DNA of 64,000 bases. Origin: a virus (lineage: Duplodnaviria; Caudoviricetes). Below, piece by piece: positions 5,901 to 64,000 of the stretch. The position numbers were made by a program, and so were the translations under genes. The stretch covers positions 64,001-128,000 of IMG/VR virus record IMGVR_UViG_3300032281_000616. The stretch is one strand, 5' to 3'. The notes below the pieces were generated by a model. It was not told the DNA's origin. It made no database searches and worked only from the letters and a program-made list of their open reading frames with translations. Positions within the stretch are counted from its first letter, which is position 1, and each line of letters begins with the position of its first letter.

Positions 5901-6310
5901 TATCTTTTATAAATTTCCTTAAACTGTCTTATATTTGTATTATTCTCGAACAATTTTACAGTAACCTCTATAGCAATGTATTCCAAAACTTTATTCATTA
6001 TCAATTTTGGTATTTCTTCTGATTTGGTGTATTGGCACGGTAGAATAATGTCTTTATCGAAAAGACGACCATTCAACATAAATCTAACTCTAGCCTTTTC
6101 TGAGAAAGTATATGGATCATAATATATCCACCAAGTAATATCCTTCAACTCGTTATTGTCTAATTGAACACATGATAAAACATTATCAAAAGCCTTCTGT
6201 TGCATCTCATTCAAAAGTCGAACAGATTCATCGGTTGGTGCTCTTTTCTCAGTTACATCTATCTTAGATGGTCCTCTATATGAGTTATCTATTTTATAAG
6301 TATTAAACAT
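5900..6310 (-). CDS. hypothetical protein
   Basis: 136 aa ORF coupled to gp47. Confidence 0.65.
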   Translation of the reverse strand: MFNTYKIDNSYRGPSKIDVTEKRAPTDESVRLLNEMQQKAFDNVLSCVQLDNNELKDITWWIYYDPYTFSEKARVRFMLNGRLFDKDIILPCQYTKSEEIPKLIMNKVLEYIAIEVTVKLFENNTNIRQFKEIYKR

Positions 6311-6312
6311 AA

Positions 6313-6756
6313 TTATTCGTAATCTCCATCGTTCTCATCTGATTCTAGATGTGGTTTAACATAAATATGGCCTTGAAAAGATGGATCATGCATCGCATCT
6401 TCATATACTCTTTGTTTGTATTCTTCCAAACCATCGTGTTGCCTTTTTTCCTTTTTAATTCTATTACAAAAAGCGTGCCAAGCTATTTGGTTGAAGTATC
6501 CGAATGGAGAAAACTCTGAATCAATTCGGAATTTTTTAGATTGTAAAGCAGCATACATTTTCACCAATGCATCACCAACCATCTCATCCTTCCATGTGTA
6601 ATTGATGAAGTTATATTTGTAACTAAGCCCTTCAGCTATTTTAACGAGGTTAATTGCAAGCTCATCTGTCATAATATCACTCTCGTAATATTTTTGAATC
6701 TGATCCTTGAAAACTTTCGGTGAGACATAATAATTTTCTTTATTTTCGTCCTTCAT
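6313..6756 (-). CDS. gp55: Late transcription sigma factor (gp55)
   Basis: NFINYTWKDEMVGDA...SPFGYFNQIAWHAFCNRIKKEKRQ matches the gp55 pattern; uvsW-gp55-gp47-gp46 synteny; ATG at 6756 overlaps the uvsW stop. Confidence 0.9.
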   Translation of the reverse strand: MKDENKENYYVSPKVFKDQIQKYYESDIMTDELAINLVKIAEGLSYKYNFINYTWKDEMVGDALVKMYAALQSKKFRIDSEFSPFGYFNQIAWHAFCNRIKKEKRQHDGLEEYKQRVYEDAMHDPSFQGHIYVKPHLESDENDGDYE

Positions 6757-8168
6757 AGTTCTGTCTCCTTCCATTCAATACTTTCTCCATCATAAAAAAT
6801 CTTTCTTTCCTCGACATGTTCCATCGAATACTTAAGATTATCACAGATATCAAATAAAGTCAACTTATTTTTTGATGGGTGTAACCTAAGTCCTCGACCA
6901 ATTGACTGAACGATTCTGATGAAACTTCTACCACCAGATAAAAATATAATATATGGAAGATTTTTGATATTAATACCTGTGGAGAAGCAAGTCGAGTTAG
7001 CTACTGTAACAATATTACTATTCTCCTCCATCTCATTTATTATCTTCATTCTTTCTTCGACAGGAACTTCCCCATTGATAAAAAAACATTTCTTATCAGA
7101 TATTGAAGACATCATATCAAGAGTATCCAATCCATGTTCGGTATGATTCACGATAATCAAAACATTACCATTCAATTTTCTGACAAGATTTCTAACTAAA
7201 GTGTGTCTCCTAGGAGATGTGTAAATGTATCTCAACTCTTGACGATAATTCATATTACGAGAATCGAGATGATTTATCTTAACTATTCGTATCTCCACAT
7301 TTGAAAGAAAACCTTCTTCTCTCAATTCTTTACTATTTTTTTCGTAAATTATAGGTCCGAATGTTCCAATAACCTTCCAGTAGTCGATTTTATCCTTTGG
7401 TAGAGTTCCAGTAAAACCGAATTTATGTGGAGTGTTTATTTTTTGTATTAATTTGGATACCGTTGAAGAAGCATTTATCTTGTGACATTCATCAACTAAT
7501 AATAGATCTACCTTTTTTATCCACTTCAAATTTTCAGAAAACTTTTTACAGAAATTCTCTGTATTACAAATAACAACATCCGTATTTTGAAGCTTCATTC
7601 CCTTTACTCCACCAGTCCAACCAGAATATGTAAAATTTACACCATACTCTTCAAAGTTTTCCAATAACTGTGATACTAAGTTTAATCCGGGAACAATTAA
7701 AAGGCATTTAAAGCTCTTTCCTGAGCATCTCCACACGTTTTCGATAAGAGACGCCTGACATAGAGACTTACCTGCTCCTGTAGCCCACAAAACGGTTCCA
7801 TAGCCTTGTTTCAAGGCAGAGTCTAAAGTCTCTAATCCATAATATCTATGCTTGTAATTTAGACCATCATATATTTCTGGAATTTCGAAATCGCATTCCA
7901 ATCTAGAACGAAATTCATTAGTTAACTCATACTCGATATCATTTTGTTTCAGAAAAGATAGAAGCTCATCATACAATCCAAAATCAAACATACCAGATTC
8001 CTGAATCGCGTATGTTGTGTCTGGTATTTTATAATTGTTAGCCTTTTTTCTAACAAAGTCTATATCTTCAACCTTCTGTGAGAAATGTTCACGAATCATA
8101 TTAAAGGTATTAAGATCGCATTTGATCTTACCCTTTCTATATGATTTGTTGTAATCTACAGTAATCAT
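6753..8168 (-). CDS. uvsW: SF2 DNA helicase UvsW
   Basis: ATGAGKS, DECH, GFTGT, FSTGINIKNL and QSIGRGLR motifs; T4-like synteny. Confidence 0.92.
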   Translation of the reverse strand: MITVDYNKSYRKGKIKCDLNTFNMIREHFSQKVEDIDFVRKKANNYKIPDTTYAIQESGMFDFGLYDELLSFLKQNDIEYELTNEFRSRLECDFEIPEIYDGLNYKHRYYGLETLDSALKQGYGTVLWATGAGKSLCQASLIENVWRCSGKSFKCLLIVPGLNLVSQLLENFEEYGVNFTYSGWTGGVKGMKLQNTDVVICNTENFCKKFSENLKWIKKVDLLLVDECHKINASSTVSKLIQKINTPHKFGFTGTLPKDKIDYWKVIGTFGPIIYEKNSKELREEGFLSNVEIRIVKINHLDSRNMNYRQELRYIYTSPRRHTLVRNLVRKLNGNVLIIVNHTEHGLDTLDMMSSISDKKCFFINGEVPVEERMKIINEMEENSNIVTVANSTCFSTGINIKNLPYIIFLSGGRSFIRIVQSIGRGLRLHPSKNKLTLFDICDNLKYSMEHVEERKIFYDGESIEWKETEL

Positions 8169-8569
8169 TTCAAATAGAATCTGATTGTATCCATCTCATC
8201 ACGCTCCCATTTTATGGGTTTCCAAAGATCAGGATATAAAAAAGAATCTGAACATTTCAGACATCTGAATCTTTTATTTCCGTTAGATGCATCGGACCAG
8301 TAATATGCTGCATTATTACAACCCTTCCTTCCACATTTAGGTTGTAATTCGGCACAACCCCTATTTCCGATATTGTTTCCATCCATGTCAGATACATATA
8401 CACTATTAGGATATATAACATCCACTACCAATGCACCTTCGTATGGTATATCGCAATCTCCATAAACCATGACAACCTCCATACCTTTAAAAAAATTATC
8501 TGTAGGTATCATATTAACAATATGTATTATTAAATTTTGGTATGGTATATGATACCTTATATTTTCCAT
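8165..8569 (-). CDS. hypothetical protein with Cys pairs
   Basis: ORF in the operon; start uncertain because it overlaps the upstream ORF. Confidence 0.55.
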   Translation of the reverse strand: MENIRYHIPYQNLIIHIVNMIPTDNFFKGMEVVMVYGDCDIPYEGALVVDVIYPNSVYVSDMDGNNIGNRGCAELQPKCGRKGCNNAAYYWSDASNGNKRFRCLKCSDSFLYPDLWKPIKWERDEMDTIRFYLK

Positions 8570-8909
8570 CTACCATAGAAATTTCAACATCGTATAAAGT
8601 TGAAAATTTTCCATGTTCATACTTTAATGGAATACCTGCTCCGATAAAAATACCCAATTTCTGGTTAGATGTTAAATCTTCTACTGATTCACCCATAGAT
8701 TGTGCTACCACAGCATCTAGAACGAAATTATTCAATGTATCATGGATAAATTTTGTATGAGATGACTCTGGAACTAATTCCTTATCAAAGATTTCACAAG
8801 TTGGGTAAATGTAATGTTTATCTGGTTTGGAATAAACAGCATCAATACATCTAAGATTTGATCCTGTATACTTTTCAAATTCTTCTTTAGTTTTAAATTC
8901 CATAATCAA
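8514..8909 (-). CDS. hypothetical protein
   Basis: 131 aa ORF in the operon. Confidence 0.6.
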   Translation of the reverse strand: MIMEFKTKEEFEKYTGSNLRCIDAVYSKPDKHYIYPTCEIFDKELVPESSHTKFIHDTLNNFVLDAVVAQSMGESVEDLTSNQKLGIFIGAGIPLKYEHGKFSTLYDVEISMVDGKYKVSYTIPKFNNTYC

Positions 8910-11690: not shown

Positions 11691-11798
11691 ATGTCAGATT
11701 GGATAGGATTACCTGAGAATATTAGTGATTATATGGGGATTATATACTTAATTAGAAATAATCATCCCGATAGTACAAAGAAATTATATATTAAATAA
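11691..11798 (+). pseudogene. Truncated small GIY-YIG gene (35 aa N-terminal remnant)
   Basis: MSDWIGLPENISDYMGIIYLIRNNHPDSTKKLYIK*; preceded by TAAGTA-N5-ATG; breaks at the YIG motif where the inverted ORF 11784-13199 ends. Confidence 0.7.
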
Positions 11799-13199
11799 TT
11801 CATCATTAACATCATTTATTATATTTTCATAAAAAGAAACATCAATAGATTCCGTATAACCATCACTTAATTCATCCTTAGTAAAAAATTTAAAATTGTT
11901 TTTATATTTTTTCTTTATAAATCTTTCTAATCTCAATATATCAACCCCAGAAGCCTTAACATTATAAACCGTATCAAACTTTGAATTTGATAATCTACAT
12001 TGCGCCAATTTTCTCTTATGTATATTATTTGTTATTCCAATTTTTAGACCTTCTTTTCCACTAAAATGAGTGATTTTGTGTATATAGAAAAATCCATCTT
12101 TGCTTTGATTGAATCCCTTTGTACAACAGAATGGACATCCAGATTTACTGTTTATAACACAATCAATTTTAGTGAACCATGTGTTTTCACAAACATCACA
12201 TCTAAACTTTGCTTTTTGTTTAACTCCGGGTGGATTATGATCCAATAATGTTATTTCTTTTCCTTTCAATCTTTCGCATATATCTCCATATGTCAACTTC
12301 GCCTTACCTATACATTTTCCACATTGATATGATGGATTTCTTAAAATTATAGAAGGGGTGATACATATATGATGTCCATTTGGACAGGTCATTTTAATTT
12401 TTTTTGTTGAGTTTTTTATAATTTCAGTGGAATCTACAGAAAACCCGCGAAGTTTTAAGAAATATTTATATTGCTCGTCTGTTGGCCTCCATCTGTTGCC
12501 CAAACTTTTATCTGTAAAATTGCATAGTATGCATCCATTAGAACTCAGCAATTTGGTTGGAGCAGTTTCCCAACTATATCCACAAGAACTACAGGAAACG
12601 TTCCATTTTTCACAATTTTTATTCACGATATTAATATGATTGGTCAAACAATGATCGGATACACATTGTTCACAAAAAATATTTTTCAAAAATTTATCAG
12701 ACTGGAATAGGTTTTTATGACCTTTCTGACAATTTGATGATATGAATGATTCATCAATTGAAAAATTATAAAAGTTTAGATTCTTAAGCTTTTTTATATT
12801 TTTATTGACTTGTTTAGAATTTATTTTCTCTTTATGTTTATTGGTTCTACATATTTTACACCCTATTGTGGATTCTATTTTAAAAATATCATATATTCTT
12901 TTAAATGTTTCAGTTTCACAATGTAAACATTTAAGTTTGTGTTTTTTTAAAGTTGGATTATAATTCCCAACCAATTGAAATCCATAACTATTCAATTTTT
13001 TATTCATCGTTTCTGTGTTCAAACAATCACCACTACAGAATTTACAACTTCTTTTTCTATTAACAACGGAATACGGGACATTTTTATAAATGTGTCCATT
13101 ATCACACATTAATAGGCATGATTTGTAAAACTTTTCATAATTTGAATGTATTCCCCACCCAAATGGTTTCAATTTGATGTTGGCTTCTTCTAAATTCAT
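11784..13199 (-). mobile_element. Putative homing endonuclease: tandem CxxxH/CxxC zinc-ribbon repeats plus C-terminal GIY-YIG-like domain
   Basis: Many CxxC/CxxGH units; C-terminal GFFYIHKI...LKIGITNNIHKR. Confidence 0.7.
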
Positions 13200-40666: not shown

Positions 40667-42142
40667 ATGAAAGAAATTCCACAAACTGGTAATGAAAGCA
40701 AAATTCAAGGGCTTGTTAGAAAATGGGCTAAGGTTCTAGATTACGAAAGTAATTCTATCCCAGCCATTCAAAACGAGCATGTCTATAAGACAACTGCGAT
40801 GCTATTAGAAAACCAAGAAAGATGGTGTATCGAAGAAGCTGGAAACTCTTCTGCTGGTATTTTCGGAGCTACTGCTGGGGCCAATGCAACACAAGGTCTT
40901 GTCAAAGCTGACGGATATGCTACTGGAGACTCCCGCCTTCCTAAGATTCTCATTCCTATGATTCGTCGTACTTTCCCTGAACTTATCTCCAACGAGATTT
41001 GCGGTGTTCAACCTATGGGTGGTCCGGTTGGTCTAGCTTTCGCTCTGCGTTATGCATATCAATCAAACTTCCTAAATGAAACCGATCACGTTGGTCAAAC
41101 AAGTGTTGGAACTCGTGGCACAAACCCAGGTCTTGGATATGGTGGAAACGGTCCTACAAGTCCGTCTCTATCCACTGTCCCGTCCTCGGAACTTGGCTAT
41201 CAACTTCTTGATACTCGTTTTACTGGTGTTAGCTCTGCTGCCTTAAGTGGTCACGCAGAATGGGGCTTCAGTCTACAAGATACAGGTGTCGCACAACTAC
41301 TCGAAAACTACGAGAACACTGGTCGTATTCCACAAATCGAAATGAAGTTTGAAAAAACCTCAGTCGAAGCTGGAACTCGCAGACTTGCTACCCGTTGGTC
41401 TATCGAACTTGAACAAGATATCAAAAATATGCAAGGCATCGACATCGATGGCGAGCTTACTAATGCTATGTCTTATGAAATTCAAGCCGAAATCGACCGT
41501 GAAGTTGTTATGCGTATGATCCAAGCCGCGTTTAACGCTGGTTATGGTGCTGGTATCTCCATCTGGAGTCCAGTAAGTGCTGATGGTCGTTGGACTGCTG
41601 AACGTAATCTTACATTCTATCAACGTCTTGTAATCGAAGCTGGTCGTATGGCTGCTCGTAACCGTAGAGGTGCCGCTAACTTTGTTATCGCTACTCCTCG
41701 CGTTTGCAGTATCCTCGAAATGCTTCCTGACTTCAAGGTATACGAAATCAATGGCACAGTTTCTACTGCTGGTGTTGGTATCGCTAAAGTTGGTACTGTT
41801 GGATCTCGTTTCACCGTTTATCGTGACACTCGTACCGAGACACAGAACTCAACTCTATACGGAGACAATGGATATCGTCCAACTCGCACTGATGCAGTCG
41901 AGTATTGCTTGATGGGTTATAAAGGTTCTGAGTATTATGATACGGGAATAATCTATTGTCCATATATTCCAATCATGGTTCAAAGAGCTATCGATCCTGT
42001 TAACTTCACACCTCGCGTTGGTCTAATGACCCGTTACGGTATCGTTAACAACATCTTCGGTGCAAATCTTTATTACCATATTATTGTAGTCAAGGGACTA
42101 GGCGTTGCGTTTACACCCGGAAGTACTAGCGTGTATTTGTAA
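40667..42142 (+). CDS. gp23: Major capsid protein (gp23)
   Basis: RRTFPELISNEICGVQPMGGPVGLAF, EIQAEIDRE, YCPYIP, FTPRVGLMTRYG. Confidence 0.98.
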   Translation: MKEIPQTGNESKIQGLVRKWAKVLDYESNSIPAIQNEHVYKTTAMLLENQERWCIEEAGNSSAGIFGATAGANATQGLVKADGYATGDSRLPKILIPMIRRTFPELISNEICGVQPMGGPVGLAFALRYAYQSNFLNETDHVGQTSVGTRGTNPGLGYGGNGPTSPSLSTVPSSELGYQLLDTRFTGVSSAALSGHAEWGFSLQDTGVAQLLENYENTGRIPQIEMKFEKTSVEAGTRRLATRWSIELEQDIKNMQGIDIDGELTNAMSYEIQAEIDREVVMRMIQAAFNAGYGAGISIWSPVSADGRWTAERNLTFYQRLVIEAGRMAARNRRGAANFVIATPRVCSILEMLPDFKVYEINGTVSTAGVGIAKVGTVGSRFTVYRDTRTETQNSTLYGDNGYRPTRTDAVEYCLMGYKGSEYYDTGIIYCPYIPIMVQRAIDPVNFTPRVGLMTRYGIVNNIFGANLYYHIIVVKGLGVAFTPGSTSVYL

Positions 42143-42279: not shown

Positions 42280-43851
42280 ATGACAGATATCGACATCAAA
42301 GACAAACTTCTAAAAGTATCCAAGGAACAATACAAAGGATCTCTAAGATTTTTTAAACCAAAGCTTACTGAATTAATCATCGGTAAGGAAGCTCTGGATC
42401 ATATCAAAAAAAGAATAGACACTAAACTACAAAAATCACACACATTAATGCTGTATTGTTATCTGAATGATATTTATGAAACACCTAAATGTGTCTGTGG
42501 ATTTGATACAAAATTTAATACTACCACGAAGGAGTTTATGAAGTATTGTAGTAATAAATGTAGATTTGATAATTTCTCTGAGGTGGTGGAAGTCAGAAAG
42601 CAATCAAACTTAGAAAAATATGGAACAAGTAATTATCTTGCTAGTGAAGAGGGTAAGAGAAAAATAAAAGATTCTAATATTGAAAAATATGGTGTATCAA
42701 ACTACACACAGACTGATGAATATAAAGAGAGTGTTAGAGGGAAAAAGAATTCTCCTGAACAAATCCTTAAAACAAAAGAGGCGCATCTAAAAAGATCATA
42801 TACCAATCTTATTAAAAAATTTACCCACTGTAAACCTCTTTTCTCATTAGAAGAATTCGGTGGAGTGAGAGGATATAAACAATATCCTTGGTCATGTAAT
42901 AAATGTAAATCTAGTTTTATATCCTCATGTGATAATGGAAGTTCTCCTATATGTAATTATTGCGAACCTACAGGATCTAAACATGAAGTTGTTTGTAAAG
43001 AATTGCTAGAATCATTAGAGGTGGATTACAAATATCGATACAGAAAGCTACCATCTGGTAAAGAAATAGATCTATTTGTTCCAGATAAAATGTTTGGAAT
43101 AGAACTATGTGGGTTATATTGGCACTCTACCGCTGGTCCTAGTTACGCAAAACCAAATCATGTTAATAAACTAAACGAATGCGAAGAGAATGGAATAAAA
43201 TTATTTACAATATTTGATGATGAAATGTATAATCCAGTAAAGAAACGAATAGTTTTAAATAAAATTAAAAATTCAGTTGGACAAAACAAGAGAAAAATAC
43301 ACGCCAGAAAATGTAAAATAATTGAATTGGATTCGAATATATGTAGTAAATTTTTGGAAAAATATCACATTCAAGGTGCTATAGGTTCCTCTTATAAATA
43401 CGGTTTAACATATAAAAATAGGCTCGTTGCAGTAATGACATTTAATAAAGGAAGAACTTCAACTGGACACAAACCCGTAGAGGGGGAATGGGAACTTGGT
43501 AGATATTGTACGATCTTTAATTTTAATGTAGTTGGTGGTGCGAGTAAATTATTAGCTCATTTTATAAAAAATATAAACCCCACTAAAATCTATTCATATG
43601 CTGATCGAAGATGGAGTAATGGTGATATGTATAATAAAATAGGCTTCACTTTTGTTAAAAATACTACACCAAACTATTGGTATACTAAAACGTTCAAAAC
43701 TAGAGAACACAGAGTCAAATTTCAAAAGCATAAGCTAGTTGATATGCCTTCTTACGATGAGTCTCTGACAGAAGAAGAAATAATGAAAAGAGAAAAATAT
43801 TTTAAGATTTGGGATTGTGGGTCAAAACTTTATGAGTGGACTAAATTTTAA
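42280..43851 (+). mobile_element. Putative homing endonuclease (EKYG repeats, zinc ribbon, PD-(D/E)xK-type domain, Hef-like C-terminus)
   Basis: LEKYG repeats, EIDLFVP..FGIELCGLYWHS, ARKC, VVGGASKL, IWDCG. Confidence 0.8.
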
Positions 43852-60263: not shown

Positions 60264-60401
60264 CTAAAGATCCCAACTCAAAGCTACATCAGTTCCTTGA
60301 TATTGTCCATCTTCTCCGGTTTTAAATTCTGTAGATACTCTCTGGGGAAGGGGAGCACAAGATAATATCAAGAGAGATGAAATGATCGATAAAATCTTCA
60401 T
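60264..60401 (-). CDS. Small predicted lipoprotein (45 aa), candidate o-spanin-like
   Basis: Manual translation MKILSIISSLLILS-CAPLPQRVSTEFKTGEDGQYQGTDVALSWDL*; last gene of the lysis operon. Confidence 0.55.
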   Translation of the reverse strand: MKILSIISSLLILSCAPLPQRVSTEFKTGEDGQYQGTDVALSWDL

Positions 60402-60414
60402 AAGTGATTGATTA

Positions 60415-62319
60415 TTAAAGGTTAGCGGCTTGAAAATGCATAAAGTCTATATTCCTAGCTTTACCTAAGCTAGTCCAACCCTCTGCTTCGACAATCTTCC
60501 AAAATGGTTCGTATTCAGGTCTAGCTAAAAATGCTTTATCTTTACCCCATTTCAATTGATTTCTATCTGGATCAATATCCACAGCAGCACCCCAGGAGTT
60601 TGATACAACCATACCATCCACAATAAAATTATGGGTATCTTCGACTTCGATATCAAAAACGTCCACAAGTCCTTTTTCGAGATATTTCACATCTTTGACA
60701 CTTTTGTAGATAAAATCTGGAAATAATTCCTCATATCCCATACAGTGAGATGTTCCCTTATTATGTTTAGAATCTTTCACCCTATCGAAATACATTATGT
60801 CCTCAACACATGTAAATATATTATTAGTATCGACCGAAGTAAACATCCACCCGTCTCGCCTATTACACTTAACTCCACATATTTCAGTCTCCCCACCGTT
60901 CCTCTTATCCAATTTCGAATTTCTGAATCCATGGAGAGATAGCAAAAGTCGAAGATTTAGCATTAAATTATACGAGGCACATTTGAAAGAATGTTTAACC
61001 GCCCTACTCGATTTTATTATACACCCATCCGTGTATAAATAACCTCTAATAAATGATCGTTGCTGATCGATAGTTGATGACCAAACTTCGGTGGGAATAT
61101 CTTTATCGAAAGATTTTTTATTATATGGTAAAAACCTTTCCCATATATCTCTTTTGTTTATAATGAACTGTTTTTCATTCTTTTTAATGTTCTCAGAACC
61201 AAAATAATTATCAAATAATTTTTCCGCGTGTTTTCTGATTCTATCACTTTTTGGAATCTGTATAGACATGTATGATGGCGATCCTTTTCGATGATGAATA
61301 CACCCATCACCTATAAACATGCCTAGAATTTCATACCAAGAATCCCAGTTAATATCTCCATCAACTATTGATTTTTTAAGGAAAACTATTTTATCCCCCT
61401 TAATTATATCTTTAGCTTCCACCATCTCTGTCCAATATTTGGCTCTTATTTGACCGTTTTTGTTTTTGTGTTGTATATATTCTGTCGGTTCTAATGTCTT
61501 CTTTTTCAAAACTAAAATTTTATGTTCCGGCGAACAGTCAATATCTCCACCACAAACCACGACTTTTACTAGCGGTTTTTTCCCATTCTCGAAGAAATTT
61601 TTAACCTTTTTTGTGACCAAATTTCCAGATTCGAATGAATAAACATAATCACCGATGGATATATTTTCGATAGGAACAATACCTTTTGGTGTCCACACCG
61701 GAGAACCTTTCGGTAAACAATGCTTACTCCATGAAGATCCACCGCGCATTTTTCTCACATTCAACACACCACCGAATCGATTAAGTCTTAGTTCTTTTAT
61801 TGCATCAATACCATAGTGATCTAAAGTATTTTTGAATATTCTTTGTAGAGAATCATGAACCTTTTCATGACAAGTGATTTTAGAAACCTTAGAATCTAAA
61901 TCCCAAGCTAAAAGCATTTCATATGGTAATTGTAAAGTTGTTTGGTTTGTCCCGACAGCACCATAAAACTTCACCATACTATTATAATCTTGCTTAGGCC
62001 AATCATTATAATGTTTTTTTACATCTACAGATTGAGATACATCAGGTTTCTTAACATGTAGGCTATCTTTTTTAAGCAATTGTTCATAAGCTGATTGAGT
62101 CATGTTACCCCAAAGACCATCAATATTTCCAATGTTTATATTAGATCTCACAGCAGCTACTTGAATTACACCAGTAACTAATTTTTCACCATTCCAAGTA
62201 GTTGGAAAATTGTAATATTTGAAAGCAGCTTCTTTACTTTTTTTACCAAAATCACCATCAATAGTTTCGGTGTAGAAACCAGAGTCTTTTAATATCTTTT
62301 GTGCTAATTTTTCTTTCAT
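60415..62319 (-). CDS. Endolysin: PG-binding domain plus M15 zinc peptidase, interrupted by an intein
   Basis: QKILKDSGFY..IDGDFGKKS PG-binding repeats; spliced SKH|SWGAAVD zinc motif; DFMHFQ third ligand; ATG at 62319 overlaps the upstream stop. Confidence 0.92.
   Translation of the reverse strand: MKEKLAQKILKDSGFYTETIDGDFGKKSKEAAFKYYNFPTTWNGEKLVTGVIQVAAVRSNINIGNIDGLWGNMTQSAYEQLLKKDSLHVKKPDVSQSVDVKKHYNDWPKQDYNSMVKFYGAVGTNQTTLQLPYEMLLAWDLDSKVSKITCHEKVHDSLQRIFKNTLDHYGIDAIKELRLNRFGGVLNVRKMRGGSSWSKHCLPKGSPVWTPKGIVPIENISIGDYVYSFESGNLVTKKVKNFFENGKKPLVKVVVCGGDIDCSPEHKILVLKKKTLEPTEYIQHKNKNGQIRAKYWTEMVEAKDIIKGDKIVFLKKSIVDGDINWDSWYEILGMFIGDGCIHHRKGSPSYMSIQIPKSDRIRKHAEKLFDNYFGSENIKKNEKQFIINKRDIWERFLPYNKKSFDKDIPTEVWSSTIDQQRSFIRGYLYTDGCIIKSSRAVKHSFKCASYNLMLNLRLLLSLHGFRNSKLDKRNGGETEICGVKCNRRDGWMFTSVDTNNIFTCVEDIMYFDRVKDSKHNKGTSHCMGYEELFPDFIYKSVKDVKYLEKGLVDVFDIEVEDTHNFIVDGMVVSNSWGAAVDIDPDRNQLKWGKDKAFLARPEYEPFWKIVEAEGWTSLGKARNIDFMHFQAANL
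60598..61719 (-). mobile_element. 374 aa intein with LAGLIDADG endonuclease domain
   Basis: Starts CLPKGSPVWTP; block B SPEH; ILGMFIGDG and FIRGYLYTDG; ends HNFIVDGMVVSN followed by Ser. Confidence 0.95.
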
Positions 62320-62708
62320 CTGAATTCTGGTTGTTCTGTTTTCTCTACCCAAGATAAAGGAGCATAACTTGGATCATTTGAATATTTATTTACATACTCC
62401 AATACGATATCTTTATTTACTATTGTTTCGTCTATTGTAACTGATGTGAGTCTTTTAGTCTCTTCTTGAACTTCTGTTTCTCTAATAGATTTCACACTAT
62501 AAGCCTTAACCCAAGAATCACCAGATGCTCCTAGAATAAAGAGTGATCCAATTGCTAAGAAAAACTGCATATACGGAGTTGGGTCGAATTGAGCACCCAT
62601 GTATAAGTTTACAAATAATACAGTAAATGCGCAACCAATAAAGATGGCACTCCATATTTGACGAACTGACTTCATAAATTCTGTTTTATCTAGGGGATCT
62701 CTTTTCAT
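62316..62708 (-). CDS. Holin-like membrane protein (2 TM)
   Basis: Two hydrophobic segments and a charged C-terminus, directly upstream of the endolysin. Confidence 0.55.
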   Translation of the reverse strand: MKRDPLDKTEFMKSVRQIWSAIFIGCAFTVLFVNLYMGAQFDPTPYMQFFLAIGSLFILGASGDSWVKAYSVKSIRETEVQEETKRLTSVTIDETIVNKDIVLEYVNKYSNDPSYAPLSWVEKTEQPEFR

Positions 62709-63394
62709 ATTCTAAATTTGGTTAAGGGAAAATAAATCATTAAAATGTTTTTGATCACCAACCAAGCAATAAATGCGGATACTAGACCTATGACCCAATT
62801 TTTGTAAACTTTAGCTGATGCACTAACTTCTTTTTCTTTCGTTAATTGTTTTTTTAGAGACTCTGACTCTTGACTTTTATCTGTTAAATTTTTTGATAGA
62901 TATACATTTTGTTCCCTTAAAGTATAAGCTTCCTCCTCTTTATTATAAGCTAATTTCTCTGTTTTATCTAAAGTATCCTTGATTATCTTTAGAATTTTTT
63001 CTTGATCCTTGGATAGTTTAGATAATTCATCGTTTTGTTTTTCTAAAAACATATTCCTAGCTTCGACTTTTTTCAATTCAGAAATAAGATTCAAAACCTC
63101 TAATTCAGAAATTGCAACCTTGGCTAAAGCCTTTTCTTTCATTTTCTCAGCTTGGGTCAATGCTTCAATTATAGATAATTTCTGATCTGATACCGTTTGT
63201 TTATTTTCCCCTAATTTATCACCTATCTTAACATTATTAATAATAGTTTCATCAACATCAACCTTAGCTTGCTTAACTGTAGGAATTACACTCTCTGTTT
63301 GTTTAGGAGGTGGGGGTATAATAGGATTAGGTAATTCTTTGGGATTACATCCAATGACCACTAATGCTGATAATAATATTAGAATTTTTTTCAT
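62705..63394 (-). CDS. Lipoprotein with coiled coil and C-terminal TM segment (unimolecular spanin-like topology)
   Basis: MKKILILLSALVVIG-C lipobox, Pro-rich linker, long heptads, WVIGLVSAFIAWLVI TM. Confidence 0.6.
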   Translation of the reverse strand: MKKILILLSALVVIGCNPKELPNPIIPPPPKQTESVIPTVKQAKVDVDETIINNVKIGDKLGENKQTVSDQKLSIIEALTQAEKMKEKALAKVAISELEVLNLISELKKVEARNMFLEKQNDELSKLSKDQEKILKIIKDTLDKTEKLAYNKEEEAYTLREQNVYLSKNLTDKSQESESLKKQLTKEKEVSASAKVYKNWVIGLVSAFIAWLVIKNILMIYFPLTKFRI

Positions 63395-63723
63395 CTTGTT
63401 TCTTTAAGTATTTGTTTGATCTCAGCTAAAGAATCTTTAATAACTACAGAATTTTCTTCTAAGCGAACAATACGCCTATCTATAGCATTTCTGTCAGCAT
63501 CTAGAACGGTTTTGGCTGTTGACCAATCGGAGGCAGTGAATTTACTACCAGATACGATAGCAGCAGATAATTCCAATTCCTTTATAGATTTTTCTATATT
63601 AGTTATTCGCTCCATTGCTTGGTTTAAGAACCAAGATGAAACCATAATCGCTATAGACATAATAAATCCCCCTATTTTAAGGACCCAGTTGACAGTTGTA
63701 TCGTGTTTACTTTGTGGAGGCAT
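63391..63723 (-). CDS. Single-TM coiled-coil membrane protein (lysis cassette)
   Basis: N-terminal TM WVLKIGGFIMSIAIMVSSWFL followed by heptads. Confidence 0.5.
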   Translation of the reverse strand: MPPQSKHDTTVNWVLKIGGFIMSIAIMVSSWFLNQAMERITNIEKSIKELELSAAIVSGSKFTASDWSTAKTVLDADRNAIDRRIVRLEENSVVIKDSLAEIKQILKETR

Positions 63724-63793: not shown

Positions 63794-64000
63794 ATGAAAA
63801 AGACAATACTCACACTGATTTTGATGTGCTCCACCTTAATTGGGGCTCAGGTTGAGCAGGGGAAGGCATCATTCTACTCTGTCAAGTGCAACGGTGGAAC
63901 GCATACAGCGAGTGGTGTTCGATTGGTGGATAGCTCTATGACAGCAGCGCACAGAACTTTACCGTTCGGAACTTTAGTGAAGGTAACGAATACTAGAAAT
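63794..64000 (+). CDS. rlpA: RlpA-like (DPBB) lytic transglycosylase/lipoprotein, N-terminal part, runs off the window
   Basis: Not in the ORF track. Signal peptide, then GKASFY...TASG...MTAAHRTLPFGTLVKVTN. Confidence 0.9.
   Translation, partial: MKKTILTLILMCSTLIGAQVEQGKASFYSVKCNGGTHTASGVRLVDSSMTAAHRTLPFGTLVKVTNTRN

Follow-up and report, generated by a model that had tools for sequence, protein, structure and literature searches.

A LAGLIDADG-bearing intein within the zinc-binding motif of a putative phage M15 endolysin

The precursor gene and its intein

The stretch of viral DNA analysed here (hereafter the window) comprises 64,000 nucleotides of a tailed phage (Duplodnaviria; Caudoviricetes), corresponding to positions 64,001 to 128,000 of the IMG/VR record IMGVR_UViG_3300032281_000616, and contains a gene for a putative cell-wall lysis enzyme (endolysin) that is split by an intein. 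The source record is a virus genome of 202,205 bp with direct terminal repeats and a CheckV completeness of 100%, and it encodes portal, major-head, helicase, ribonucleotide reductase (RNR) and SbcC-like genes. The endolysin precursor gene occupies positions 60415–62319 on the minus strand (634 codons plus the stop codon, giving a protein of 634 amino acids, aa), and its ATG start at 62319 overlaps the stop codon of the upstream gene (ATGA). The precursor consists of three parts: an N-extein (aa 1–200; 61720–62319, minus strand) with PG_binding_1-like repeats and the first part of an M15/LAS domain, ending in SWSKH; an intein of 374 aa (aa 201–574; 1122 nt at 60598–61719, minus strand), in which a LAGLIDADG homing endonuclease is nested in a Hint splicing domain; and a C-extein (aa 575–634; 60418–60597, minus strand) that supplies the rest of the M15 active site, from SWGAAVD (Asp581) to DFMHF (Asp625, His628).

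The arrangement is not an assembly artefact, since an independently deposited ENA scaffold of 202,137 bp (L010) has the identical gene. A group I intron or a frameshift was likewise rejected, as the reading frame is open along the whole precursor gene. The intein-bearing gene was present in several contigs, with a depth of 42.7 in the likely source run, and a blastn search with the precursor gene against 50,697 phage records returned no match.

Our analysis confirmed the insert as a canonical intein of class 1 that contains a LAGLIDADG endonuclease. On the precursor (P0001 below; all other P numbers denote metagenomic proteins), the Pfam profiles Intein_splicing (PF14890) and LAGLIDADG_3 (PF14528, aa 418–478) scored 44.8 and 34.5 bits, against curated cut-offs of 35.8 and 22.5 bits, respectively. 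Block A of the intein (CLPKGSPVWTPKG; 61681–61719, minus strand, as are all intein motifs) holds the nucleophile Cys201, the Cys1 that is invariant in 10 family members, and block B (DCSPEHKILVL; 61507–61539) holds Ser263 and His266, the latter also invariant in 10 family members. The two LAGLIDADG motifs lie at aa 331–340 (ILGMFIGDGC with Asp338; 61300–61329) and aa 424–433 (IRGYLYTDGC with Asp431; 61021–61050), with invariant G-D-G and D-G, respectively. Block F (VFDIEVEDTHNFIV; 60619–60660) provides Asp556 (F:4) and His563 (F:13), both invariant, and block G with the +1 residue (DGMVVSN↓S, where the arrow marks the junction; 60595–60618) provides Ser573, Asn574 and Ser575. The residues typical of class 1 are therefore in place at Cys201, S263-P-E-H266, Asp556/His563 and Asn574↓Ser575 (+1), the exception being the penultimate position (G:6), where Ser573 stands instead of His. 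A bacterial intein-like (BIL) or Hog-type Hint domain capable of cleavage only was rejected, given the presence of a +1 nucleophile, a terminal Asn, an endonuclease and a clean extein junction.

Structure prediction was consistent with this assignment. An AlphaFold model of the precursor had a mean predicted local distance difference test (pLDDT) score of 75.5, and the best matches to this model in a Foldseek search of the PDB were the TliVMA, PI-SceI and PI-PfuI inteins (E 5e-17 to 2.5e-11), followed by free-standing LAGLIDADG enzymes (I-DmoI and I-Tsp061I among the matches) and mini-inteins. Both junction segments of the precursor model had low pLDDT, whereas the same region of an intein-free model had high pLDDT; because the underlying alignments differ in depth (12 versus 62 rows), this contrast was set aside and not used as a sign of an inactive precursor. 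In GC content the insert (33.9%) matches the window (33.1%), so its composition gives no hint that it arrived very recently from a foreign source.

The interrupted protein is predicted to be a leaderless endolysin that combines peptidoglycan (PG) binding with an M15/LAS zinc peptidase, the role of zinc being assigned by homology. The N-extein matches PHROG 17001 (endolysin) at profile positions 4–205 of 265 (E 1e-46) and the C-extein at positions 206–265 of 265 (E 9e-31), and because the two matches adjoin exactly between positions 205 and 206, the insertion is clean, with nothing lost or duplicated. M15 zinc peptidases share the signature S-x-H-x6-D...D-x-x-H. Without the intein, H200-x6-D581 and D625-x-x-H628 (precursor numbering) match the zinc-site part of this pattern, and S198, H200, D207, D251 and H254 (numbering of the spliced protein) are invariant in 62 intein-free homologues; by homology, His200, Asp581 and His628 would be the zinc ligands. 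The intein is thus placed between the first zinc-ligand His (His200) and the SWGxAxD half of the M15 (LAS) motif.

Domain profiles detect this enzyme poorly in its interrupted form. PG_binding_1 scored 17.5 bits on the N-extein, under its cut-off, and M15_4 scored 18.3 bits on P0001, under its cut-off of 25, because the intein splits the domain (the C-extein corresponds to profile positions 10–69). The intein-free protein P0023, which is 88% identical, reached 27.8 bits against the same cut-off, and a second, P0024, reached 24.6 bits. In fold comparisons made with VIA-align, residues 106–260 of a P0023 model (pLDDT 93.6) aligned with the VanY-like enzyme BaLdcB (Z 8.3; 125 aa, 3.4 Å), and further alignments were obtained with VanXYc (Z 7.3), Hedgehog N-terminal domains (Z ~7), Ply500 (Z 6.5) and LysB4 (Z 6.1); residues 1–60 aligned with peptidoglycan-binding domains. 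Foldseek E values for this model against the PDB were weak (0.1 or worse), with top rows that were all of the LAS fold, and a phmmer search of P0023 against PDB sequences yielded nothing meaningful. Isolated phages encode homologues that carry the annotations endolysin, M15 metallopeptidase or L-Ala-D-Glu peptidase. The endolysin has no transmembrane or signal segment, and a scan of the complete genome found no Phage_lysozyme, Amidase_2, SLT or second M15_4 gene.

Intein-free alleles and the intein family

Homologues of the endolysin without an intein are abundant, with at least 552 clusters recovered through the N-extein from a collection of 5.8 billion protein clusters. The closest of these are exactly 260 aa long, are 78–88% identical to the predicted spliced product, and read WSIH↓SWGAA(V/I)D across the site. 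Among isolated phages, 171 records contained a homologue and none of them (0/171) contained the intein. Relatives with the same gene order (DPBB gene, genes for proteins of 110, 229 and 130 aa, endolysin, dUTPase) also have the 260-aa allele. These alleles bear on a first-pass annotation of the window, made from the sequence alone, which had described a complete 374-aa intein (Cys1, SPEH, two LAGLIDADG blocks, Asn and +1 Ser) with a penultimate Ser (VVSN), inserted in the zinc motif after the first ligand His of a protein that would splice to a PG-binding M15 peptidase of ~260 aa. All of these points were borne out: each motif was located, with Pfam scores above cut-offs; Ser573 occupies the penultimate position; the ligand role of the His agrees with the invariance of the motif in the 62 homologues; and nature provides intein-free proteins of exactly the expected length, with the same junction.

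Presence of the intein is polymorphic even among very closely related phages. In three further runs, of which one belongs to the same study and two to a freshwater study, contigs span the insertion site and are shorter there by a net 1122 nt exactly, and a minor contig of 244 nt from the likely source run also bridges it without the intein, with W-S-I-H↓S across the joint. Contigs encoding identical 110-aa and 130-aa neighbour proteins fall into one set with the 634-aa endolysin and another with the 260-aa endolysin. An intein-free sister, the IMG/VR contig L012 (51,590 bp), has flanks that are 96.4% identical, differs by the exact 1122-nt indel, and encodes an endolysin protein 96.6% identical to the spliced product. 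Since a phage ~96% identical to the one studied here has the intein-free allele, the intein is dispensable.

Differences between the gene and its counterpart in L012 are unevenly distributed. Only two of the 51 nucleotide differences fall in the first 350 nt, and identity drops to 73–86% in 30-nt bins just before the insertion site; in 100-nt bins over 4 kb, the minimum (83%) is the N-extein-side bin that touches the intein, with 97–100% identity further away. This divergent tract, centred on the insertion site, is suggestive of co-conversion or recombination. Just upstream of the intein, at window positions 61722–61821, comparison with L012 also revealed the replacements V185C and K199I (the latter at the −2 position) and many synonymous changes, which may stem from co-conversion of donor sequence or may modify the target of the endonuclease. 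Taken together, the exact 1122-nt polymorphism among ~96% identical phages and the divergent tract fit homing, and equally fit recombinational loss of the intein.

Related inteins occupy the same M15 site in at least 12 full-length metagenomic clusters, along with fragments. A full-length search recovered eleven metagenomic proteins interrupted at this position by an intein, each with the junctions H↓CL(P/T)...VVSN↓SWG. An intein-only profile searched against 1.84 billion representatives recovered nine full-length M15-hosted members (396–562 bits), as well as fragments, the divergent P0153 and P0155, the second mini-intein of the family. Beyond the M15-hosted members, profile scores fall to at most 235 bits, a range occupied by SufB, phage portal, FtsZ, polyprenyl synthetase and DUF5131 inteins. 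These nearest non-lysin relatives include P0181, P0164, P0151 and P0209 (FtsZ/tubulin, polyprenyl synthetase, SufB and DUF5131 hosts) and many phage portals; to our knowledge, FtsZ and polyprenyl synthetase are unusual intein hosts. In every intein-bearing member with a Pfam M15_4 match, the match restarts at profile position 10 right after the intein.

Genomic context was available for some other members of the family. A scan of IMG/VR yielded a single further intein-bearing locus, L005 (IMGVR_UViG_3300010429_000981), in which the endolysin gene at 5998–7617 is followed at 7802–8764 (plus strand) by a gene with an ADP-ribosyltransferase exoenzyme-type domain (PF03496, E 4e-12). On L006, a Logan contig that carries P0005, the intein-bearing endolysin lies 3' of a patatin-like gene, in surroundings that include two Acb2/Tad1-hairpin (anti-CBASS/Thoeris-type) genes, a Cpn10-like gene and several methyltransferases.

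The catalytic apparatus of the intein is conserved throughout this family. Ten full-length relatives show no variation in the splicing and endonuclease residues, and 19 of 19 members retain Cys1, His in block B, Asp and His in block F, the terminal Asn and Ser or Cys at +1. All 19 also end in VVSN followed by Ser or Cys, which indicates that the penultimate Ser is a stable family trait and not decay. Two natural mini-inteins, P0003 (159 aa) and P0155 (163 aa), which belong to different extein subfamilies, have lost the endonuclease and kept the splicing domain. Such retention is a usual sign that splicing is under selection, and suggests that excision is maintained because the host protein is needed.

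These mini-inteins also bear on whether the unspliced precursor could already be an active peptidase, its halves held together by the close intein ends of the Hint fold, in which case splicing would be irrelevant. The extein halves are complete, and the N- and C-termini of inteins are adjacent in known structures. However, the insertion falls within the H-x6-D metal-binding segment, between two ligands, and the retention of splicing residues in the mini-inteins implies that excision matters. We therefore regard an active precursor as highly improbable and expect the unspliced protein to be inactive.

Mean identity across the family is 40% for the inteins and 31% for the extein catalytic domains. 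Free hopping of the intein between very different M15 subfamilies, which these values might imply, is weakened by congruent trees: the intein tree and the extein tree both recover the same seven-protein clade that includes P0001, and the one supported conflict lies inside that clade ({P0001, P0002, P0004} versus {P0001, P0002, P0005}). The two trees point to inheritance that is largely vertical, with at least one transfer.

Excision, homing and lysis

The endolysin gene lies in a neighbourhood that resembles a lysis cassette, with putative holin and spanin genes. Immediately upstream, and translationally coupled to the endolysin, is a gene for a 130-aa protein (62316–62708, minus strand) with a scored transmembrane segment at aa 21–39 and a second hydrophobic stretch visible by eye, which may be a holin. 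It is preceded by a gene for a 229-aa protein (62705–63394, minus strand) whose lipobox (VIGC) at the N-terminus and transmembrane helix at the C-terminus enclose a long, coiled-coil-like central part; this topology is that of a unimolecular spanin, and the protein appears spanin-like. A 110-aa protein (63391–63723, minus strand) with an N-terminal transmembrane helix and a helical tail could be i-spanin-like or holin-like, and a 45-aa lipoprotein-like open reading frame directly 3' of the endolysin (60264–60401, minus strand; lipobox LILSC) is a candidate o-spanin. None of these four small membrane or lipoprotein genes had a family match, and the array they form around the endolysin is kept in relatives. 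A signal-peptide DPBB_1 (RlpA-like) gene at 63794–64000 (plus strand), which runs off the end of the window, adjoins the cassette in L007, L009, L010 and L012, and could provide a second wall-acting activity.

Given this neighbour, we considered whether the intein might be dead or capable of cleavage only, leaving a crippled endolysin and lysis by another enzyme, such as the secreted DPBB/RlpA-like protein. The absence of the penultimate His, the low confidence of the precursor model at both junction segments and the constant adjacency of the DPBB_1 gene to the cassette would agree with such a scenario. We nevertheless find it very unlikely, since the catalytic residues are intact and are conserved over relatives that are merely 31–54% identical, the frame is open, the exteins are as conserved as the intein-free alleles, the mini-inteins retain the splicing domain, and the complete genome yielded no further recognisable endolysin family.

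Other elements of the same general kind are present in this genome. Two further, weak Intein_splicing matches (G000:C1:54781-54951 and G000:C1:8269-8778, both on the minus strand; L002 and L003) lie outside the window, within open frames of 476 and 948 aa. Large free-standing HNH-type homing endonuclease genes (PHROG 3339/559) occur at 42280–43851 (plus strand) and 11784–13199 (minus strand), one of them directly downstream of the major head protein gene (40667–42142). The presence of several inteins and homing endonucleases in the genome, together with the targeting of a conserved catalytic motif, suggests that the intein is a selfish passenger. In our assessment, the endolysin probably harbours a selfish mobile intein that excises itself, as opposed to a regulator of lysis.

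Under this hypothesis, a class-1 intein with a LAGLIDADG endonuclease would have invaded the endolysin gene between the codons for His200 and those for Asp581, Asp625 and His628. After translation, the precursor would excise its intein in the cytoplasm through an N-S shift at Cys201, attack by Ser575, cyclisation of Asn574 and an O-N shift, and the ligated 260-aa enzyme would then wait for permeabilisation by the holin, as canonical endolysins do. During co-infection, the endonuclease would cut the intein-free allele at the WS-x-H↓SWG site, and the intein would be copied in (homing).

The first-pass annotation had gone further, proposing that the rate of splicing gates lysis and that the penultimate Ser might slow splicing or make it conditional. 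Conditional splicing of this kind would act as a safety catch or timer for lysis, with an enzyme kept inactive by its split zinc site and with splicing that is either slow or triggered by zinc, redox state or temperature. Several features of the precursor are compatible with such control: the intein parts zinc ligand 1 from ligands 2 and 3, the −1 residue is a metal-binding His beside Cys1, a near-invariant Cys immediately ahead of block B might in principle bond with Cys1, and the Ser at G:6 is invariant in the family. In addition, zinc reversibly inhibits some inteins, including one without a penultimate His, according to papers cited in PMC4031507. A more specific version of this idea holds that zinc bound non-natively in the precursor (by His −1 and Asp +7, near Cys1) restrains splicing, and that a metal- or redox-responsive safety catch acting late in infection has been conserved along with VVSN. 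If true, splicing held back by metal or redox state would constitute a post-translational safety catch on a lysis enzyme.

Nevertheless, the comparative data offer little encouragement for either version. The phage with ~96% identical flanks and identical neighbour proteins is intein-free, and at least 552 intein-free homologue clusters stand against 18 intein-bearing family proteins recovered (fragments included); with intein-free homologues so far in the majority, no phage lineage seems to depend on the intein. In canonical holin-endolysin lysis, timing is set by the holin, and the endolysin is stockpiled earlier; holin-like and spanin-like genes, as predicted above, also flank the endolysin here. 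The N-extein has no Cys close to the junction that could serve as a redox trap. Moreover, a residue other than His at G:6 is compatible with fast splicing (PMC4031507, PMC5874633): ~5% of functional inteins are without a penultimate His (PMC4031507), cyanobacterial DnaE inteins have Ser or Ala at this position (PMC5874633), and the Npu DnaE intein splices with a half-life of at most 1 min (PMC4031507). We found no support for gating of lysis by splicing rate, in view of the intein-free sister phage, nor for a slow or conditional reaction caused by Ser, in view of its invariance in the family and these precedents. Conditional splicing in general thus appears unlikely and the zinc-restrained version somewhat more so, and the intein probably has no regulatory role in lysis.

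Some of our observations weigh against a self-excising, homing intein as the best explanation. The intein has no penultimate His, a residue with an assisting role in most inteins, and splicing, endonuclease cleavage and lytic activity are all predictions drawn from sequence. For the host domain, structural similarity to known folds is no more than moderate (Z 8.3; Foldseek E 0.1). Patches of 85–89% identity occur elsewhere in the 4-kb comparison with L012, so the divergent tract beside the intein is supportive but not decisive. The deep agreement between intein and extein trees indicates a largely vertical history, in which homing may be rare. Finally, if the DPBB neighbour does represent a second wall-degrading activity, there would be less need for splicing.

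Relation to known inteins and zinc peptidases

Surveys of inteins describe hosts that are overwhelmingly nucleic-acid and ATP-handling proteins, and a lysis enzyme widens this host range. Full-text searches of the literature found no report of an intein in an endolysin or in any peptidoglycan hydrolase. A survey of 224 mycobacteriophage Lysin A proteins describes all of them as free of introns and inteins (PMC3314691), and in a survey of mycobacteriophage inteins every phage intein host binds nucleic acid (PMC5050341). The rarity of this host, as supposed in the first-pass annotation, therefore holds for the literature and for isolated phages (0/171) but not for metagenomes, which contain a family of inteins at the same M15 site. 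Such genes are also prone to being missed or mislabelled by annotation pipelines: JGI names relatives 'intein/homing endonuclease', and the M15_4 match is under threshold.

The natural variants described here, namely the intact allele of the complete 202-kb genome, the intein-free allele with 96.6% identity and the two mini-inteins, provide a set of controls with which a purely selfish phage intein could easily be told from one that influences lysis. Lysin precursors that excise their own intein may be of interest in enzyme engineering as well.

Among characterised inteins, PI-SceI, TliVMA and PI-PfuI (PDB 1VDE, 7QSU and 1DQ3) resemble the endolysin intein in their class-1 Hint domain, nested two-motif LAGLIDADG endonuclease and identical catalytic residues, but they reside in V-ATPase, polymerase and RNR hosts, have a penultimate His, and are only 13–18% identical to it. 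The cyanobacterial DnaE split inteins (Ssp, Npu) likewise are without the penultimate His yet splice; in contrast to the endolysin intein, they are split, have no endonuclease and interrupt a DNA polymerase, and we do not claim close sequence kinship with them. Inteins of phage terminase, portal, helicase and RNR proteins (PMC5050341; phiCbK, PMC3556154) are similar in being mobile, in targeting conserved catalytic motifs and in their sporadic occurrence among relatives, and many of the nearest non-M15 relatives of the endolysin intein sit in phage portal proteins. In the mycobacteriophage survey, however, all phage intein hosts bind nucleic acid (PMC5050341), whereas the host here is a cell-wall lysis enzyme.

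With respect to the host enzyme, Ply500 (2VO9), LysB4 (6AKV) and BaLdcB (4MPH) share the H-x6-D...D-x-x-H zinc site and the LAS fold, and M15 endolysins are similarly leaderless enzymes encoded inside a lysis cassette; the L-alanyl-D-glutamate peptidase of phage T5 is a further M15-type comparator. None of these comparators carries an intein, and the solved structures are only 10–17% identical to the host modules. Hedgehog/Hog proteins also combine an LAS-like zinc domain and a Hint domain in one polypeptide, and the N-terminal domain of Hedgehog, which has been treated as a relative of DD-peptidases (PMC6027127), aligned with the host enzyme at Z ~7. In Hedgehog, however, the Hint domain is C-terminal to the zinc domain and cleaves in a sterol-dependent manner without splicing, whereas the Hint domain of the endolysin is nested in the zinc motif and has a homing endonuclease and a +1 nucleophile; we note the resemblance only and claim no common ancestry. 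Compared with these systems, the endolysin intein gives no sign of a new mechanism, and is instead a known kind of element in a new host gene and at a new insertion site, directly after the first zinc-ligand His of an M15 enzyme.

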